Assembly: GCA_965222225.1 (NCBI GenBank)
Contig: CBDCTK010000002.1
Span: forward strand, 864,001-928,000
Length of the DNA: 64,000 nucleotides
Source: Candidatus Poribacteria bacterium
GTDB taxonomy: Bacteria; Poribacteria; WGA-4E; JAJDTR01
Direction of reading: 5' to 3'
Below the pieces are notes generated by a model, which saw only the letters and a program-made list of their open reading frames with translations, was not told the DNA's origin and made no database searches. This document shows positions 26,876-34,893 of this stretch, piece by piece (position 1 is the stretch's first letter; each line of letters begins with the position of its first letter). Made by a program: the position numbers and the translations under genes.

Positions 26876-27646
26876 ATGTTCACCTACGACTATCATATCC
26901 ACACGAGGCTTTCCCCGTGCGCCGATAAGCATTTTAGCATTGATAAGATCATCCAGATTCAACAGACCCGCGGGTTGGAGGAAATCGGGATTACCGACCA
27001 CGATTTTAGCTACGGCTCGCGAACCAAAAACATTGATCGAGCGCGCAAAGCGATTGATGAATGCGATACGTCAATCTCAGTCCGGTTTGGCGCGGAGTCA
27101 CACATGCTCGAATACCGTGTCCCGTCAATTGATATACGCTTTGCAGCATACTTTGATTATATCTTGATGGCGCCAAATCACTATCATTTTCGCGGGGTGG
27201 CTCGCCCAACCCAACTGCTGGATCCGAAGAAGGTAGCCGTGCACGAGTTGTACATGTTTGAAGCCGCGGTTGCCTGCCCGATAACGGATGTCGTGGCGCA
27301 CCCGTTTGTTCTGTCGCCCGAGGTTTTTGGCTTTTCCAAAGAGGAATTCTCAGCCTTCGGGAGCGAAATGATGGGGCATATCGATCAGAAGCGGTTGATT
27401 AATCAACTCGACATGGCATCACAGCGCGGGATCGGCATTGAGATTAGCCCCAAATTCATCAAATACAATCAGAGACATCTCGTGGAGTTTTATCAGATGT
27501 GTCTAGATCGGGAGGTACTGTTGATGATTGGCAGCGACGCACACAACGCCGAGCAGTTGGAAGAGCTGGCGTTGCTTGGACCCGTGCTTGAGGAGTTGGG
27601 GGTTTCGGAGGAGCACCTGTGGCGACCGAAGGAGTGGCATTGGTAG
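26876..27646 (+). CDS. PHP domain metallo-phosphoesterase
   Basis: DYHIHT, ITDH, VAHP, GSDAH motifs. Confidence 0.9.
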   Translation: MFTYDYHIHTRLSPCADKHFSIDKIIQIQQTRGLEEIGITDHDFSYGSRTKNIDRARKAIDECDTSISVRFGAESHMLEYRVPSIDIRFAAYFDYILMAPNHYHFRGVARPTQLLDPKKVAVHELYMFEAAVACPITDVVAHPFVLSPEVFGFSKEEFSAFGSEMMGHIDQKRLINQLDMASQRGIGIEISPKFIKYNQRHLVEFYQMCLDREVLLMIGSDAHNAEQLEELALLGPVLEELGVSEEHLWRPKEWHW

Positions 27647-27741
27647 GTTGGATGAACTTCAAACAAGTGGTGGTAGGTAGAAATGCGGTGGATGTCTCCA
27701 GTGCAAAAAACCATGTCAGAATTGAATCAATCAATGTCTCG

Positions 27742-29244
27742 CTATATATAGTATTTGAAATTTGGTTTACAATCGGAAACAATAGGATTCGAAATCAAAA
27801 TTTCTCCGACCGCGTCTGAAAAACCTACGGTAACAGGCTGAGAATTCCCAAGGTGGCACGCATTGTAGTTCAGTTTTGTTAAACCATAAATATCTTGGGC
27901 AACTCTTTCTATCAGAGCATCTCCGTGCTGAATATCAATGCGTAATGGCACAGGTGTTTCCCACCCGTCGTAGGTCGCAATTCGAGGTTTGAATCCACTA
28001 CCCCATAGGTATCCTGCCCGATTATTAACTCGCCAGAAGGTGCCTCTCAGAATTGGCATCTTGCCAGTGCGAAATAATCGCGGCCCGTATCGTTCCGGGC
28101 GGACCCTTACCCCAATAAGTTTAGCACTCTTGGGGCAAGCTCTTTGGTAGCCAGAAAACTCGTGATGACCAATGGTGGATCGTGAATGTAAGAAGATCTC
28201 GCGAAGTGGCTTACCACCAAGGTCCTCGTAAGTCTTTAGGACCCCACGCAAGAGGTTATATGCAGCAGTATCATTTAGATGATACTGATTAGTTTCCGAT
28301 GAATACCACGGTCCATATTGTCCAAGGAATACCACACCGTCTCCTGTATTGAGAAACATCTGGGCTGCACAACAGGCAGTTTCCTCTTCGTCTAATGTAT
28401 CATTTCGACGAAAGGCAATGCCGATGTAACAGACACCGTCGCGCGCAGTCACAAGCCTCCAAGGTTTACCGCCACATTTGTAATAAAGCGCAGTGCCAAG
28501 GTTCCACATACGGTCCGATAGCGGAGTGAGCGAGCGTCCCCCGCGCGAGTCATCGTCTTTCAAACACATTGTGGATTCCCGCACAATTTGCAAAGGGATT
28601 TCGTACTGCATGGAAAGTGCTTTCAACTGCCGCCGAAAATCGGGCGCCAATCGATACTGCTGTCGATCGAAATCATCCAAAAACTCAAGTTGCCCTGCCC
28701 TTCTCATTTGTATTGTTTGTGAAATACCAGCTTGACTAATAGGACTTGCCACGTCGGACTCTGGCCGACAATTCCGCCAAACCTCATCTGGGACTACGCA
28801 GATAGCCACGCCAATATTCTCATCAAGTTTGCTCGCCTTTTCCAACTGTTGAAGGTAAAAATTGACGGTTTTAAACGTACGCTCGTATTTATCAGGATGA
28901 CGAGAGGCCTCAATGAGTTGGGCCGCACCAATTGGATAAGACCAGACTGGCTTACTAGGCCAATGCGAGCAGAATGTAGCCTCAAACCCGGGAAATGGAG
29001 GCCAGAGCCGCAGGTTTGCTTTTCGAGCGAAGGTGGCAGGATTGTTCATAATCTCTGACCAAGCTTTGAACTTGGTGATTCCTGGGCCAGTTCCAATAAC
29101 GATGTAGGATAGTGTCCCTGGTCTTGACGGACCATCTGCGTCAAAAGGTCCGAACAGAGCTAGGCCATCACGGGGATCTATAGTCCGTTGGTGGTAGCGG
29201 AATTCCAATTCTGGTTCATCAAACACTATGATTGATTCGGTCAT
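27742..29244 (-). CDS. ago: Short prokaryotic Argonaute (MID-PIWI, catalytically inactive, SPARTA-like clade)
   Basis: Start ATG 29244 gives 500 aa. EPELEF..DPRDGLALFGP, FRRQLKA, QIVRES, YYKCGGKPWRL, CCAAQMFL..GDG.VF, LTKLNYNAC, C-terminal FKYYI. Tetrad positions are GIAF and LHSR instead of Asp. Confidence 0.95.
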   Translation of the reverse strand: MTESIIVFDEPELEFRYHQRTIDPRDGLALFGPFDADGPSRPGTLSYIVIGTGPGITKFKAWSEIMNNPATFARKANLRLWPPFPGFEATFCSHWPSKPVWSYPIGAAQLIEASRHPDKYERTFKTVNFYLQQLEKASKLDENIGVAICVVPDEVWRNCRPESDVASPISQAGISQTIQMRRAGQLEFLDDFDRQQYRLAPDFRRQLKALSMQYEIPLQIVRESTMCLKDDDSRGGRSLTPLSDRMWNLGTALYYKCGGKPWRLVTARDGVCYIGIAFRRNDTLDEEETACCAAQMFLNTGDGVVFLGQYGPWYSSETNQYHLNDTAAYNLLRGVLKTYEDLGGKPLREIFLHSRSTIGHHEFSGYQRACPKSAKLIGVRVRPERYGPRLFRTGKMPILRGTFWRVNNRAGYLWGSGFKPRIATYDGWETPVPLRIDIQHGDALIERVAQDIYGLTKLNYNACHLGNSQPVTVGFSDAVGEILISNPIVSDCKPNFKYYI

Positions 29245-29254
29245 CGTCAATATC

Positions 29255-31057
29255 TTAATCAAAATGCTCATCATCGTAGTTTCTAAGCAGTTCTGAGCGT
29301 TCGTGACTAAGCGCATCAAGAGCCGCTTCGTTAATCCCAATTGGACAATACACACGCATCGGAGTTGAATTTACGATTATTTGCGCGTCTTGCAGTCCGC
29401 CAATGTTTATCTTTTGTTCATCTTTTTCGTCAGCAAGGAACTGAACTACAGCCAATACGCGGTTAAGCCAGTCGTTATTCCACCAGTTCTTGCATAGGTG
29501 TTTTCGTCTTGAATCGATTGTACGTTTATCGTTGAAGGGGTTTCCGTCTTTGTTTGAAAGACGAACTTTTATGCGAATAAGGACCGTGAAATTATTGATA
29601 AGATCTCGGCGGACAAAAAAGGTTGGCGACAGAGAATATAAGTATTCATGGCCGGACTGATGTTTTCTTTTTCCAGTAGCAGTTATATAGGTCTTTGTAC
29701 CATCAGGTCGATTAAAGTTAAGTCGATTGTTCTCCACGAGATTCTCAGGAAAGTAGGGTTGTTCCATTTTAGGACAGTATTGCAGTTTTTTCTGATAACA
29801 CTTCACTATTAGGGCTTTTCGGATAAGCTCCGATACGAGATCAAGGGACCAAATGCTATATATATTCTTAACTGCCGACCACAGTGAACCCCCATTTTCG
29901 ATTATATTGTATTTCTCGAAAACTGATACGGGCGGCCTATGAAAACTCAGAAATGTATGTCGATCGATTTTTCGATAACTCCACTCGCGCTCAAGTTCAT
30001 TAAGATTCTCTCTTGGGATTGGATTCTGCGTTTTGAAGCAATAAATGACCTCTGGTATCTGCTGAACTTGCAAACAGTTAGAAGAAATGGTTTCTTTTTG
30101 ATCGGAGAGGATGTCTTTTTGTAAGAAGGCTTCTGCGGCAACTCGCTGGCCTTCATATAATAATCGTGGACACTCAATAGATCTCAGCTTTTTCAGTAAT
30201 TGATTTAGACCTTCACCCCAATCAAGTTTAAATGGGATGAACATCAATGTTCTCGTTACCTGGTCCAACTGTGGAACGCTTACGCCATCAACATTTAAGG
30301 GGATTAGGAAATCTTCAACACGTTCATTAGCTATGTTGAGTGCGAGTGTTCTTTGACGCATTACTTCTGGATTTTTGAGCGATGCTTGTGAATACAAACC
30401 GAGAAACCGAAAGGTTCGATTCTTAATTGCCTCGTCGACAGCCTTGGGGTAAGTCTCACCCCCTAGCAACTTGAACCGCTCACACCATACAAGGTAGCCC
30501 TCAGCGGTGAGTTTGCGAGTCAGCCAATCGGCAAGTGCTGCATCTTCAGGAACACAGCTAATGAAAATGTGATCTCGCTCTGTTGAAGCGCTGATTCTGT
30601 CTTGAATCGCAAGGAATTCTGGCGGAAAGAGTCCTGGGTGATGTTTCTTGATCTGCGGATAACTCACGTCAAGTAGGATCCGCAGACGTTCAACACCAAA
30701 GAGTTCAAATTGCCAACCGAATTTTTTGTAAATGTACGCTATCGCCTCATCTCGTTGATGCGCTGTCAATTTAGCTGTTGTGACAAAAATCAGCCGGCTA
30801 CACGCGTGGCCATGTTTATACACCTTCTCTGCATCTTCAACGAGTTTCGCTCTCCAATCTTCACGGACGCTATAGGCAAAAATCGTAGTCTCATTAGACT
30901 TATTGATATGAATTGCGTCTCGTCCTTTATCACTAAAACCACCAAGGGGTTCAATGGATTTGTAACCTTCTAGTGACATCAAGTCATGGCAAAGTCGCTC
31001 AAATTCAAAATAATCTGTGATTGCTTCAAGACAATAGATTGTGGGGTCTGCTGCCAT
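29255..31057 (-). CDS. REase(Mrr-like)-TIR-APAZ partner of short pAgo
   Basis: aa 1-145: FEFERLC..GG.SDKGRD..FAYS..DW..K. aa 161-298: TIR (HIFIS..ED..LADWL..KL..EGY.VWC..LLGGE, FLIPL, W.EGL.QLL). C-terminal APAZ ending SRRKHLCKNWWNNDWLNR. Stop lies 10 nt before the ago ATG. Confidence 0.9.
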   Translation of the reverse strand: MAADPTIYCLEAITDYFEFERLCHDLMSLEGYKSIEPLGGFSDKGRDAIHINKSNETTIFAYSVREDWRAKLVEDAEKVYKHGHACSRLIFVTTAKLTAHQRDEAIAYIYKKFGWQFELFGVERLRILLDVSYPQIKKHHPGLFPPEFLAIQDRISASTERDHIFISCVPEDAALADWLTRKLTAEGYLVWCERFKLLGGETYPKAVDEAIKNRTFRFLGLYSQASLKNPEVMRQRTLALNIANERVEDFLIPLNVDGVSVPQLDQVTRTLMFIPFKLDWGEGLNQLLKKLRSIECPRLLYEGQRVAAEAFLQKDILSDQKETISSNCLQVQQIPEVIYCFKTQNPIPRENLNELEREWSYRKIDRHTFLSFHRPPVSVFEKYNIIENGGSLWSAVKNIYSIWSLDLVSELIRKALIVKCYQKKLQYCPKMEQPYFPENLVENNRLNFNRPDGTKTYITATGKRKHQSGHEYLYSLSPTFFVRRDLINNFTVLIRIKVRLSNKDGNPFNDKRTIDSRRKHLCKNWWNNDWLNRVLAVVQFLADEKDEQKINIGGLQDAQIIVNSTPMRVYCPIGINEAALDALSHERSELLRNYDDEHFD

Positions 31058-31190
31058 TATTATAATTCAAAGTCTGTTACGTACTGTTTTACTTATCCGT
31101 GTATCATATGCTGTCCTATTCTCAATAGTAGCTATGAGATTGCCCATGTTTGATATGGTACCCCAATTGTGGTTAATTTGCCAATACGCT

Positions 31191-32618
31191 TTAGCCCGAC
31201 ATCCCTACTAACATTACACGCTCGGCTTCCCTTTTTGCCTCTTCCACGATGGATTGACCTTCCTGTTGCAGTGCTTTTGCGTGCTTGCGGATTTCGGCGA
31301 TATGGTCGGCAATTTCGATCTGCTTCTTTGGGTCAGGCAAAATTATCCTTAATTGTTTAACTACGTTCCTTGTTATGCCGGTAACGGTGCCACCTGTTAT
31401 CTCTCTTTTGATTTGGAATTTGCCAAAACACGAGTTTAGGTAGCTCAGCAGGTAAACCGCGTTCACATTATCCCGTGGTCTCAGTAAGAAGAGATGTTCA
31501 TTTATATTCTGTCCTATATGTTCTTTACTCTGAACAATGCCGATTTTTCCTGTAGTTGCACCATCTTTGACTAAAAGCAAATCATTTAGTTGCGTTGCCG
31601 TTCTCTTGTGCAAACTATGAAACTCATGCGGGATGTATTTCGGCCTATTGACTTCTATCTCACATTGATTATTGATATGTTCTCCACCAAAACTCAATGC
31701 TCCAGATTTTATGTTTGCTACGCCACCTTTCGGACGACTTCCGCTTTCTATCATTTGCAATAAATCCCCAAGTCGCTTTACGCTACTTGTGTGTCTTAAT
31801 TGATTGTGTAGAACGTCGTAGCTATTTTGATAATAGAAAGGATCGACCCGCTTACCCGCTATCTCACCAGCATAGACTACATAGCATTTCTTCGCTTCAA
31901 TCGCTGGCATCTCAATTCCCAATTGTGCCGGAATATACTCATCAATTGAAGCCAAAAGCGAGTCTGCTTCCTGTTCTTTTTGCCGCTTCTGTGCATAGGC
32001 GGAGTCGACGGCCTCTGCAATACGATTTTGGACTTCAGGCGGTGAAAACGGCACTCTCAACGCCCGAACTTGGTATAGATCGATATTATCTCTGGCACCT
32101 CCTGACTTTATTCGATCAAAAACTGTTTGAAATGGATCTGAATTTAAAACTGTACATAACCAATGAGGATTTACAACTCTTGAAGGTCTTATGAGACACA
32201 CCGCTTGATTGATATTCGCAGATTCGAATCTATCATAGACACAACTCCTGCCAATTGATGCACCCACAATATTTAGCAAAACATCCCCTTTTTGCAATTG
32301 CGAACGCCTCATCCGTTGGTGTACGTCATCATCAATACAAACCCTTTTGCTCAACGAAAGGGATCCTGCCAATACATTTTCACTTTTTACAAACAGAATC
32401 CCTTCATCTTTGTACTCGTCTCCCTTCCATAAAGGGGTTTCTCCCTTGGTAATAGCGGTAGAAATTGCCCGAAGTCTAACTAGATCGAACTTGCTTGAAA
32501 GTATTCTTTCGCGATTTTCAATGAAAAATGGCTTATAGAAATCCACGCCAAACGTATCTTCAAGTTGGCCCTGATTGAGGATAAAAATCTGACTTTCCCA
32601 ATCAGGGCTTACGCGAAA
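31191..32618 (-). CDS. hsdS: HsdS-like specificity subunit with two TRDs; frame open back to the slippery site with no ATG upstream of the first TRD
   Basis: Two TRD/conserved-helix repeats (ITKGETP..GDVLLNIVGASIGR..PPEVQNRIA; IESGSRPKG..DLLLVKDGATTGK..PKKQIEIA). ORF-track start is GTG 32546 without an obvious SD. Confidence 0.88.
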   Translation of the reverse strand, partial: FRVSPDWESQIFILNQGQLEDTFGVDFYKPFFIENRERILSSKFDLVRLRAISTAITKGETPLWKGDEYKDEGILFVKSENVLAGSLSLSKRVCIDDDVHQRMRRSQLQKGDVLLNIVGASIGRSCVYDRFESANINQAVCLIRPSRVVNPHWLCTVLNSDPFQTVFDRIKSGGARDNIDLYQVRALRVPFSPPEVQNRIAEAVDSAYAQKRQKEQEADSLLASIDEYIPAQLGIEMPAIEAKKCYVVYAGEIAGKRVDPFYYQNSYDVLHNQLRHTSSVKRLGDLLQMIESGSRPKGGVANIKSGALSFGGEHINNQCEIEVNRPKYIPHEFHSLHKRTATQLNDLLLVKDGATTGKIGIVQSKEHIGQNINEHLFLLRPRDNVNAVYLLSYLNSCFGKFQIKREITGGTVTGITRNVVKQLRIILPDPKKQIEIADHIAEIRKHAKALQQEGQSIVEEAKREAERVMLVGMSG

Positions 32619-32621
32619 AAA
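32568..32621 (-). promoter_or_regulatory. Candidate -1 programmed ribosomal frameshift signal
   Basis: Minus strand: T_TTT_TTC (32621-32615), spacer GCGTAA (contains the 0-frame stop), then GCCCTGATTG...CAATCAGGGC perfect 10-bp stem (32608-32599 with 32577-32568). The -1 frame is the hsdS frame. Confidence 0.75.
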
Positions 32622-34893
32622 CCTGGGTCTTCATGTGAGAACCTGCGGTATTCATTGTAGATTGTGTGGAGATCGTTAATCGGGTCCTTTCGGCCCGTTG
32701 CATCATAGCCGATACGCTCGGCAATTGCCATAAAGATTGGATTGTTGGCGTTTTCCTTAATCCATTTACGGATGTCTTCAGCGTTCTTGTCCGCCAACTC
32801 CTCTTTAACCACGTCAATCTTCTCCTTGTATTTCGCTTTAACCTCGCGCTCCCACTCCGAATCGGCAGCGGCTTTGAATGCCTCGCGATATTCCTTCTCA
32901 AGAGTGCCAAGGTCGGCCGTATGTTCTCTCAGTTGAGCGCGCGCTGTCTTCAATTCATATGGCCCAACTTCCCGAACGGTTTGGGAGGTTTCGTCGCGAA
33001 CGAAACGGCTCCGCAGTGATTGAACCTTTTTCGCCGGTTCTTTGCCAAGTTTCTGGTTCAACTCGTCAATAAGATCCAAGATTGCCCGAAATCTTGGTTC
33101 AAACTGTTCTGTGGCTGCGGCTTGTGGTCGACATCCGCGATTGAGTACCAATTTCCGCTCATCCTCAAGTTCCCGGAACCGCCGCGCATATAGTGCTTCA
33201 TTCCTTCCTTTAACCTTATCGATGTTCGCTTGATAAAGACCATACTCCTCTTGTGAAAATTTACGCAAAAACAGTATTGATGGCTTCACCCCTGCGCCGT
33301 AGTGCGAAAAAGCGGTTTGAGGGAGTGAGACGACCGCAAGGATTTGGAAATGTCCTTCGATGTAATCCCTTACGTACTGCAACGAGGAGTTGGTCAGAAT
33401 TCCGTCGGGCAAAATGATTGCGAGTGTTCCTGTCTTCCATTTGAGAAAATCAAAACATCGTTCCAGAAACAGAACCTCTGTTTTTTGAGAAGCGTATTTC
33501 CTCCCAAGTTCATAATCAGCTAGATATGGCGATTCGTCCTTCTTTACGACCGCCCCGAACGGTGGATTGGTGAGAATTACGTCAAATCTCTCTTTATTAA
33601 AACCACTATGCTGGTTGTTGAGGTCATCGAAATTCACCAGCCCGTCGCTACCGATGACATTGCTGTGCCCGTCATCATGGATAATCAAATTCATCTTGGC
33701 GACGCGGGCAATAGAATCGTTGACCTCAATCCCGAAAAGCCGTTTTCGGCGAAATCGTGCCAGTGGGTATAATGTTCTCTGCTATCTTCGGAGTAGTATT
33801 CAGATGCCTCTGTCCGAATGTAATCCATCGCGTGTAACAGAAAGCCACCCGAACCACACGCTGGGTCGAGAATTCTATCTTCATGGTGCGGTGTAACCAT
33901 CTTGACCATGAACTCAACGACCTCGCGCGGCGTGAAATATTGCCCCATATCACCCCTGAAATAGTTTCCGAGAAATCGCTCGAAGGCAATCCCCTTCACG
34001 TCCAAGTCAGTCCGATTCAAATCGATTCCTTGTAGGTGATTCACAACCGAAAATAATCTAGCATCATCAACCCGAATATCCTCTGTAAAGACCTCTGGGT
34101 CTTGTGCTTTGGCTTCCTGATACAATCTGTTGATTCGGTGCGCAACCGATTCAGGGCGTTCACGCGTTTTGATTTGAAAATCGTAGGGCTCGCCCCTCCG
34201 TCTAGCCTTTTTTTCATCCCGAACTTTGACAAAAAGAATTTTGGAGAGTTCATTAAACGCGACCGTCGGTTCAAGCCTGCCCCCCTGCCAAAGTGTATCA
34301 TGGCATTTTTCAAGGGCACGGATGAGATCGTCTCTTTCAACGACCTGTAAATCCCAATCGGGGTCACCTGTCCGATATCGCCATTCGGAGACTGAACCGT
34401 ATCGAACCGGAACATCTGCGATGATGTTTTGGACGCGTTCAAGCGGTTGATGACCTTTAACCTCAAAGAAGCGCCTAGTATTTCCCGCAACAACAGCCGC
34501 GTAGTCTCCGGATAAAGAGTTACAATTCCCGAAAACCTGTTCAATTGCCTGATTGAATTCTGCTTCAGAAATCCTGTCTTTTTTGCATTCTACTACGATG
34601 AAAGGAGTTAGCCGGTCATCGTCCATGAAGACGACCAGATCAGCCGAATCACTTGGTGTCCGACGCGGGACAGTAACCTCCAAGCCCATCGCGTTTTCCG
34701 AATACTGATATCGCTCAATTAACTCGACATAATATCTTGCCCGGACTTGTTCTTCAGGATTGGCAAATCTGTATCTTTTGTTTTGAGCGACATAACGGAT
34801 TGTTGTCCCTTCATTACGGATTGTTGTCCCTTCATTAAGGAACTGGATGTAGCCTTTCCGCTCTCCGATCTGAACAAAATCAATCTGTTTCAT
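32609..34893 (-). CDS. Fused restriction endonuclease (HsdR_N-like) + N6-adenine methyltransferase (type IIB/IIG-like), split by a 1-nt frameshift near 33745
   Basis: PEEQVR..ADLVVF..VECKK nuclease motif, GQYFTPRE, LDPACGSGGFL, then GIEVN..VAKMNLIIHDDG, LTNPPFG, ILPDGIL. One extra A in the A4 run at 33743-33746 joins both ORFs into 761 aa. Confidence 0.9.
34795..34836. repeat. 21-bp in-frame tandem duplication
   Basis: ACGGATTGTTGTCCCTTCATT twice, encoding NEGTTIR-NEGTTIR on the minus strand. Confidence 0.95.

Follow-up and report, generated by a model that had tools for sequence, protein, structure and literature searches.

Short prokaryotic Argonautes (pAgos) of the SPARTA type (clade S2A, which includes the Maribacter, Crenotalea and Bacillales systems) are encoded beside an APAZ protein that carries a TIR domain N-terminal to APAZ. 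To our knowledge, the SPARTA systems that have been studied so far all kill through the NADase activity of this TIR domain. SPARDA (DREN-APAZ), SPARHA (HNH-APAZ) and SPARMA (Mrr-APAZ, from Kordia jejudonensis; S2B) have no TIR domain and belong to another APAZ/pAgo clade; in the accessible parts of the reports on these systems, guide/target recognition leads to oligomerization or filament formation, and the APAZ-fused nuclease is thereby activated (PMC12205087; PMC12738770; bioRxiv 2025.04.08.647717). An architecture that joins an Mrr domain to TIR and APAZ (Mrr-TIR-APAZ) appears as no more than a name in the available text of Koopal et al. 2022 (PMC9097488) and of a SPARDA preprint (10.1101/2023.06.08.544223), and the available text of Ryazansky et al. 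2018 does not mention it. In the literature on short Argonautes we found no experiment on either of the two lineages of this architecture treated below and no sequence analysis of Mrr-TIR-APAZ proteins, although supplementary alignments may show the column of the catalytic Glu. Here we describe an Mrr-TIR-APAZ/pAgo operon in a 64,000-nucleotide stretch of DNA (the window) from a Candidatus Poribacteria bacterium (contig CBDCTK010000002.1, positions 864,001 to 928,000). With modest confidence, we read it as a SPARTA-derived short-Argonaute operon in which the effector would have been swapped and the TIR domain kept as an assembly scaffold.

The operon lies on the reverse strand and shares with SPARTA the order of its genes, the short pAgo beside an APAZ protein, and the TIR domain N-terminal to APAZ; unlike SPARTA, the window protein adds a 150-residue N-terminal Mrr-like domain. 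The first gene (29255..31057 (-), stop codon included) is an open reading frame (ORF) of 600 codons, in which Pfam Mrr_cat matches residues 16-105 (E 7.7e-7, above the cut-off) and Pfam TIR_2 matches residues 164-288 (E 6.8e-15). On the basis of the Pfam match, profile-profile alignment with hhalign and conservation, we assign residues 1-150 (30608..31057 (-)) to an N-terminal Mrr-like PD-(D/E)xK module. Residues 160-292 (30182..30580 (-)) form a TIR domain without the catalytic Glu, as delimited by its Pfam match and by alignments to SPARTA proteins and to TIR-APAZ proteins that have no N-terminal domain (hereafter canonical). The APAZ region follows at about residues 300-585 (29303..30160 (-)): solved SPARTA TIR-APAZ chains match residues 161-584 of the protein by phmmer, and its hhalign alignment with canonical TIR-APAZ proteins spans 432 columns at a probability of 100%. 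The closest of these SPARTA-type canonical relatives are 35-41% identical to the window protein over residues 160-590. The best PADLOC model for the whole protein is Aga_REase-TIR-PNTD1-PNTD2 (E 2.7e-83, residues 8-587). Residues 586-600 (29258..29302 (-)) make up an acidic tail, as seen in the sequence, which by analogy may correspond to the C-terminal tail of SPARTA TIR-APAZ that is described as autoinhibitory in the accessible text of bioRxiv 10.1101/2023.09.23.559129.

The second gene encodes a short pAgo (MID-PIWI) of 501 residues (27742..29247 (-)). The longest ORF, 27742-29355 (-), runs from an upstream GTG and overlaps the first gene; the start is probably the ATG at 29247, 10 nt past the TAA of the first gene, with the upstream GTG not being used. 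PADLOC identifies the protein as pAgo_I (E 2.3e-170), and its residues 5-501 match residues 3-507 of 8fex_B, a solved SPARTA short pAgo, with an E-value of 5.8e-95, the C-terminal K-Y-Y-I included; a Pfam search with this protein gave no match. According to the available text of Koopal et al. 2022 (PMC9097488), short pAgos all lack the DEDX tetrad. An earlier account of this DNA made from its letters alone, which we call the sequence-only reading, had placed a pAgo directly downstream of a restriction endonuclease-like (REase) TIR-APAZ gene, and the ORFs, the Pfam and PADLOC matches and the 10-nt gap between the two genes bear this out.

In the accessible text of SPARTA studies, an E77A substitution in TIR-APAZ serves as the catalytic-dead control (bioRxiv 10.1101/2023.09.23.559129; PMC10474274). 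The window protein has Gln235 instead of this Glu (E77 in MapSPARTA numbering), and three alignments agree on the column. When the window protein is compared with solved chains by phmmer, P-E-V-M-R-Q-R-T-L falls on G-V-L-K-E-L/I-A-V, and the residue count puts Gln235 on Glu77. A profile of 51 Mrr-bearing relatives, when compared with solved SPARTA chains, puts Gln235 at the same Glu77 column. Likewise, hhalign of this profile with that of 81 canonical relatives (probability 100%, 432 columns) places Gln235 on the Glu of K-E-R-T-L-A-L, a column that is invariant in the canonical profile. The codon is CAA (30353..30355 (-)) and the helix reads P-E-V-M-R-Q-R, so that a Gln at the catalytic Glu position, as the sequence-only reading had proposed, is confirmed by codon and alignments together. 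We regard it as highly probable that the window TIR domain can no longer act as a catalyst by the known mechanism. With Gln in the Glu77 column and changes at five further near-invariant TIR positions, killing through NADase activity would not be expected.

The same reading had asked whether loss of the Glu co-varies with presence of the nuclease-like domain, and among the relatives of the window protein it does. A word-index search in which 8000 candidates were scored yielded 722 homologs at E<=1e-5. In the best 120 of these 722, nearly all of which are 600-612 residues long and which we refer to as near homologs, column 235 is Gln in 117, His in three and Glu in none. An exhaustive search of 50%-identity cluster representatives yielded 2097 matches at E<=1e-3, and the best 150 of these were aligned with the query and sorted by coverage, leaving out 14 rows without TIR coverage and one with partial N-terminal coverage. 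Among the 52 rows in which both the N-terminal domain and TIR are covered, column 235 reads R27, Q16, T2, I2, E2, L1, A1 and V1, and among the 84 rows in which TIR is covered and the N-terminal domain is absent it reads E81, Q2 and R1. Of the two Glu rows in the former class, one (P0259) is an NB-ARC/TPR protein that has no TIR domain. After its removal the Glu is present in 1/51 Mrr-bearing rows, as compared with 81/84 rows without the domain and 0/120 of the nearest homologs. The last Mrr-bearing row with Glu (P0154) has a degenerate TIR domain from which the BB loop is deleted. The three rows that have neither the N-terminal domain nor the Glu (P0136, P0157 and P0163) start at query positions 160, 181 and 128, respectively; each nests singly inside the Mrr clade, and they appear to be fragments or gene calls that were cut short. 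The recurrence of the Glu substitution and of the operon across hundreds of homologs is far beyond chance. The row with partial N-terminal coverage (P0253, 647 residues) carries a NADAR domain fused ahead of a canonical TIR-APAZ with the catalytic Glu, and is another instance of an N-terminal add-on in the family.

A quick maximum-likelihood tree of the TIR-APAZ part was built from 130 rows, after 21 rows with poor coverage and P0259 had been dropped. A single branch (SH-aLRT 99) has 81 canonical rows on one side and 49 Mrr-clade rows on the other; on this tree, two changes are needed to explain the Glu trait. The two sides of this branch differ in where their conservation lies. Mean pairwise identity in the Mrr clade (46 rows) is 0.52 for the N-terminal domain, 0.30 for TIR and 0.31 for APAZ; in the canonical clade (80 rows), which has no N-terminal domain, it is 0.59 for TIR and 0.27 for APAZ. 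Of 41 TIR positions that are at least 90% conserved in the canonical clade, 8 stay at or above 90% in the Mrr clade and 19 drop below 50%, and each of the canonical residues D193, K229, N231, P232, E235 and W266 is found in 0-7% of Mrr-clade rows. Invariant columns in the profile of 51 Mrr-bearing relatives are P37, G39, D43, G45, R46, A48, K71, D75 and F144 in the N-terminal domain, with W178 the only one in TIR. The TIR domain is nevertheless present throughout the Mrr clade, and W178, L183, G187, S223, F276, W280 and G283, which are conserved in more than 90% of rows, are the structural core of TIR. At the level of sequence, these comparisons support a move of conservation from the TIR domain to the N-terminal domain in the Mrr clade.

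We compared the N-terminal module with 30 canonical Mrr_cat domains from same-phylum genomes and obtained an hhalign probability of 97% (E 1.3e-10) over residues 7-130; with the Pfam match, this makes the homology of the module to Mrr_cat solid. E20, E36 and D43/D47 align with the helix Glu, the strand Glu and the D-g-G-I-D of Mrr, and in the 51 relatives these residues are found in 49 (E20), 46 (E36), 51 (D43) and 50 (D47) rows. Conservation extends to F60-A-Y-S-V-R65, D67, W68, K71, D75, H84 and D103, with Y62 present in 48/51, K71 in 51/51 and H84 in 49/51 relatives and with D67, D75, H84 and D103 as further near-invariant polar residues. The residues that the sequence-only reading had listed as the nuclease motif (E20, D43, D47, A-Y-S and K71) are thus all present and conserved among relatives. 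These counts come from search-derived sets; an additional alignment was built from loci fetched by the pattern F-A-Y-S-V-R, and invariance of that pattern there is by construction. The window's own genome also encodes a classical Mrr of 300 residues (L038) and a helicase-like protein of about 583 residues (L039, G000:C2:3379349-3382699) with a C-terminal Mrr_cat domain that has the canonical D-K-G-A-D and Q-V-K.

The N-terminal module, taken as the first 150 or so residues of the query, recurs in proteins of other architectures. It is 67% identical in P0259 (1024 residues), whose remainder is NB-ARC/AAA_16 and TPR, 65% identical in P0257 (414 residues; pentapeptide repeats), 60% identical in L033 (301 residues; a weak ABC-3C CTD11 match), and 43-45% identical in L035 and L037 (764 and 774 residues; NACHT). 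In all five of these proteins PADLOC matches only the first 150 or so positions of the REase-TIR model, with additional weak LmuA matches in L035 and L037. In STAND defense proteins, the N-terminal domain is the effector and is activated by oligomerization. The effector role of the N-terminal module is supported because the same module sits at the effector position of STAND proteins. An AbiEii toxin gene (L037:3114-3986) lies directly upstream of one of the two NACHT proteins, and an AbiEii/AbiGii gene precedes a canonical TIR-APAZ gene on an Indioceanicola plasmid.

A pattern scan for the module, using one genome per species, returned 36 loci, of which 31 encode Mrr-TIR-APAZ. The hosts of these 31 belong to Poribacteria, Chloroflexota, Acidobacteriota, Planctomycetota, Desulfobacterota and Cyanobacteria, together with an Actinomycetota metagenome-assembled genome (MAG) and a Balneola MAG. 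A short pAgo lies directly downstream on the same strand in 29 of the 31 loci, and the remaining two end at contig edges. Across related loci the pAgo is 54-76% identical, as against 36-69% for its Mrr-TIR-APAZ partner. Among 30 relatives of the window genome, none of the nine same-genus genomes had a match at E<=1e-20, and one same-order genome has a canonical TIR-APAZ of 452 residues. Two of the loci show irregularities. The Mrr-TIR-APAZ gene of a Pyrinomonadaceae MAG (L012:4001-4468) has one in-frame stop inside its first 156 codons, and in the Balneola MAG (L032:4001-6471) the match to the 600-residue protein covers 2471 nt rather than about 1800, which points to an insertion or a break.

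Proteins of the same domain composition also occur on alphaproteobacterial plasmids. A tblastn search against plasmids gave 34 records; in seven, the match extends over 80% or more of the query, with an identity of about 23%. Genes for Mrr/TIR/APAZ proteins of 640-650 residues, each followed by a pAgo gene, are present on pNGR234a and on a Salipiger plasmid. The best 120 of 415 homologs of this type at E<=1e-10 all have the canonical Mrr motif of E, D-x-G-x-D and Q-A-K (E14, D37, D41, Q54, K56), and all 120 have Asp at the catalytic Glu column, as set by hhalign against the canonical profile (probability 99.9%); by MAFFT, the Salipiger protein has Leu at this column. The alphaproteobacterial type is therefore like the window protein in combining Mrr_cat, TIR and APAZ, in having the pAgo downstream and in lacking Glu at the catalytic column, and unlike it in sequence, in forming a separate clade and in having a canonical Mrr motif, which the window protein does not. 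In a quick tree of 75 TIR-APAZ rows, whose groups were named after the tree had been seen, a branch with SH-aLRT 100 joins the alphaproteobacterial lineage to four Glu-bearing TIR-APAZ proteins from proteobacterial plasmids, and the window lineage groups with its own canonical relatives. A single clade comprising both Mrr-TIR-APAZ lineages was rejected by the approximately unbiased (AU) test (delta lnL 94, p 0.002). Judging from these trees, Mrr-TIR-APAZ proteins probably originated on two occasions, and in both cases the Glu is missing. The sequence-only reading had noted that Mrr-TIR-APAZ architectures had been listed bioinformatically. The name is indeed in the literature, but the type behind the PADLOC model is the other, alphaproteobacterial lineage, for which the REase-TIR model gives an E-value of 1e-289 (pNGR234a) against 2.7e-83 for the window protein. 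Koopal et al. 2022 (PMC9097488) presumably had this type in view when they named an Mrr-TIR-APAZ subclade.

Several observations weigh against the scaffold reading. The TIR domain might still consume NAD+ through another carboxylate, Glu231 (codon GAA, 30365..30367 (-)), which lies one helical turn before Gln235, and the Mrr-like domain would then either be a second, accessory effector or serve to bind DNA. Positions 231 and 235 (i, i+4) share a helix face, and position 231 is Asp or Glu in 43 of the 52 rows of the Mrr-bearing class and in 119 of the 120 near homologs (E93, D26, Q1). We nonetheless consider this alternative unlikely, since in the alignment of the Mrr-bearing and canonical profiles Glu231 falls on the Asn of N-P-x-K-E-R. 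The canonical column is Asn in 76/84 rows, with Pro following in 79/84, and Asn231-Pro would read as a helix N-cap. The local pattern of the Mrr clade, [DN]229-[PA]230-[DE]231, points the same way, as Asp or Glu after [DN]-[PA] is favored at helix starts. In the 51 Mrr-bearing rows the residues at 231 and 235 pair as D-R in 20, E-Q in 9, D-Q in 4, E-R in 4 and otherwise in 14, a pattern for which a helix-start preference and side-chain pairing between i and i+4 may be a better explanation than a catalytic base that has moved; Arg235, found in half of the Mrr clade and mostly together with Asp231 (20/51), looks like a salt bridge that fills the site. The caveat of the sequence-only reading that Glu231 lies one turn away from Gln235 is weakened by this alignment: a shift of the catalytic role to Glu231 is judged less likely, as its canonical counterpart is an Asn where the helix begins. 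Conservation cuts both ways. Of the 41 canonical positions, 32 are unchanged in the window TIR domain, among them the BB loop L-L-G-G-E-x-Y-P; the differences lie at the six positions that are never kept and at three conservative ones. In the window subfamily (119 full-length near homologs and the query) identity is 0.70 for the N-terminal domain, 0.64 for TIR and 0.54 for APAZ. The TIR domain of this subfamily is retained and constrained, and it is therefore doing something. Our guess is that assembly would be the most economical role, a catalytic role or ligand binding without turnover being the other possibilities. Against an active TIR domain stand the joint loss of six canonical near-invariant positions around its site and the fall of clade-wide TIR conservation to the level of APAZ. 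The alphaproteobacterial lineage, in which identity is 0.71 for the N-terminal domain, 0.76 for TIR and 0.72 for APAZ, does not have a relaxed TIR domain; this and its invariant Asp may fit a TIR domain that is still active, and the lineage would be a partial replicate only. Within the window lineage, moreover, Glu loss and Mrr gain fall on one branch and amount to a single event as far as their co-variation is concerned.

The nature of the N-terminal domain is the other point at issue. The sequence-only reading had called its nuclease motif non-canonical, and rightly so: the acidic residues are kept, and the canonical Mrr Q-x-K dyad is missing, with no Lys in either of two candidate registers. 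In the first, obtained with generic Mrr_cat, S63-V-R65 falls on Q-a-K, which fits the +16/+18 spacing from the Asp and has low column confidence; in the second, F60-A-Y62 falls on Q-A-K (probability 47% against the classical Mrr of the same genome, L038, and 86% against the alphaproteobacterial N-terminal domain). R65 is Asn in 6/120 near homologs, and all 119 near homologs with coverage of the K71 column have this Lys. Searches of solved structures with the N-terminal domain sequence and with its profile found no relative, and an NCBIfam search gave nothing useful. The N-terminal domain could thus be catalytically inactive, or more broadly not a hydrolytic nuclease, being instead a degenerate PD-(D/E)xK domain that serves nucleic-acid binding, assembly or another chemistry, such as that of a metal-independent RNase acting through the conserved Tyr62, Lys71 and His84, with killing then due to an activity as yet unrecognized. 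We find this doubtful, if less so than a TIR domain that is still active, because a purely structural domain would not need the residues at the Mrr acidic-ligand positions (E20, E36, D43 and D47), which are kept in 46-51 of the 51 relatives, and because the module occupies the effector position in STAND proteins. Finally, it is very improbable that the operon is a decaying or nonfunctional remnant of a SPARTA system. A methyltransferase gene adjacent to it is frameshifted, and the related Pyrinomonadaceae locus has the in-frame stop in its N-terminal domain mentioned above, but both window genes are intact, homologs at E<=1e-5 number 722, the operon is conserved over many phyla, and the N-terminal domain is under strong purifying selection.

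The scaffold reading can be set out as a sequence of events. By homology with SPARTA, the pAgo/APAZ heterodimer would load a guide RNA, recognize complementary invader DNA and oligomerize. The TIR domain, with Gln in place of the catalytic Glu, would not be predicted to hydrolyze NAD+ by the known mechanism and would be retained as a structural or assembly module, probably an oligomerization scaffold. Oligomerization would gather copies of the N-terminal Mrr-like PD-(D/E)xK module and turn on nucleic-acid cleavage, and the outcome would be abortive infection or plasmid loss. The sequence-only reading had proposed an effector swap in which the TIR domain stays as the oligomerization scaffold of a collateral nuclease, and this is supported in part: conservation and context support the N-terminal module as the predicted effector, while a nuclease activity of this effector, its collateral nature and the scaffold role of TIR are inferences. 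Its active site would be non-canonical, with the acidic metal ligands kept and the Mrr Q-x-K dyad replaced. More tentatively, and with somewhat more doubt than confidence, we propose that the TIR domain has been turned from an NADase into a MyD88-like scaffold within a SPARTA chassis, and that killing is carried out by an Mrr-derived portable module with a rewired dyad, shared with STAND NTPases and possibly differing in chemistry or substrate from classical Mrr DNases.

Viewed in this way, the operon has counterparts in several known systems. The logic that we propose for it is the same as that of SPARDA, SPARHA and SPARMA; unlike them, the window protein belongs to the SPARTA clade and has its nuclease-like domain, with a non-canonical catalytic dyad, in front of a TIR domain that has been retained. 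STAND (NACHT/NB-ARC) NTPases with an Mrr-like N-terminal effector have the same N-terminal module (43-67% identity; P0259, L035-L037), but their sensor and oligomerization engine is an NTPase with repeats rather than pAgo, APAZ and TIR. The window TIR domain resembles scaffolding TIR domains of the MyD88 type in that it has no catalytic Glu and would presumably serve for assembly. The Mrr-clade profile matches the MyD88 TIR domain (E 1e-5) better than that of the NADase AbTIR (E 2.7e-4); MyD88 is an animal signaling adaptor, and evolutionary closeness to the window TIR domain is not implied. If the scaffold reading is true, an effector has been replaced within a working sensor chassis, in a lineage spread over Poribacteria, Chloroflexota, Planctomycetota, Acidobacteriota, Desulfobacterota, Cyanobacteria and other phyla, and the operon is a natural case of a prokaryotic TIR domain that is retained without its catalytic residue. 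The lineage also appears to define a strongly conserved, non-canonical Mrr-like module that is also found in STAND proteins. Should this module prove to be a collateral nuclease that a guide can program, it would, like SPARDA, be a candidate detection tool.

The surroundings of the operon were also inspected. The G+C content is 0.42-0.44 over 29001-32000 and about 0.50 in the surroundings, and the Mrr-TIR-APAZ/pAgo system is an accessory island. A scan of 27400-31400 for promoters and terminators found a number of sites not above that in shuffled sequences. A PHP gene at 26876-27646 was considered as a third component and rejected, as none of the 36 related loci has an equivalent of it. On the other side, a restriction-modification pair at 31191-34893 (-), consisting of a methyltransferase and a specificity subunit, adjoins the operon. 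The same pair accompanies the operon in five loci of Poribacteria: in L003-L006 it lies upstream, and in L002 downstream. Operon and pair together are a recurring defense island. In the window, the methyltransferase gene (32609-34893 (-); HSDR_N_2 and N6_Mtase), which lies upstream of the operon, is broken into two ORFs. The N6_Mtase motif runs upstream of the ATG of the second ORF in that ORF's own frame, pointing to a 1-nt frameshift near 33740-33755. The split means either that the gene is broken or that the assembly is in error here; in L004 and L006, both halves of the methyltransferase match in one frame.

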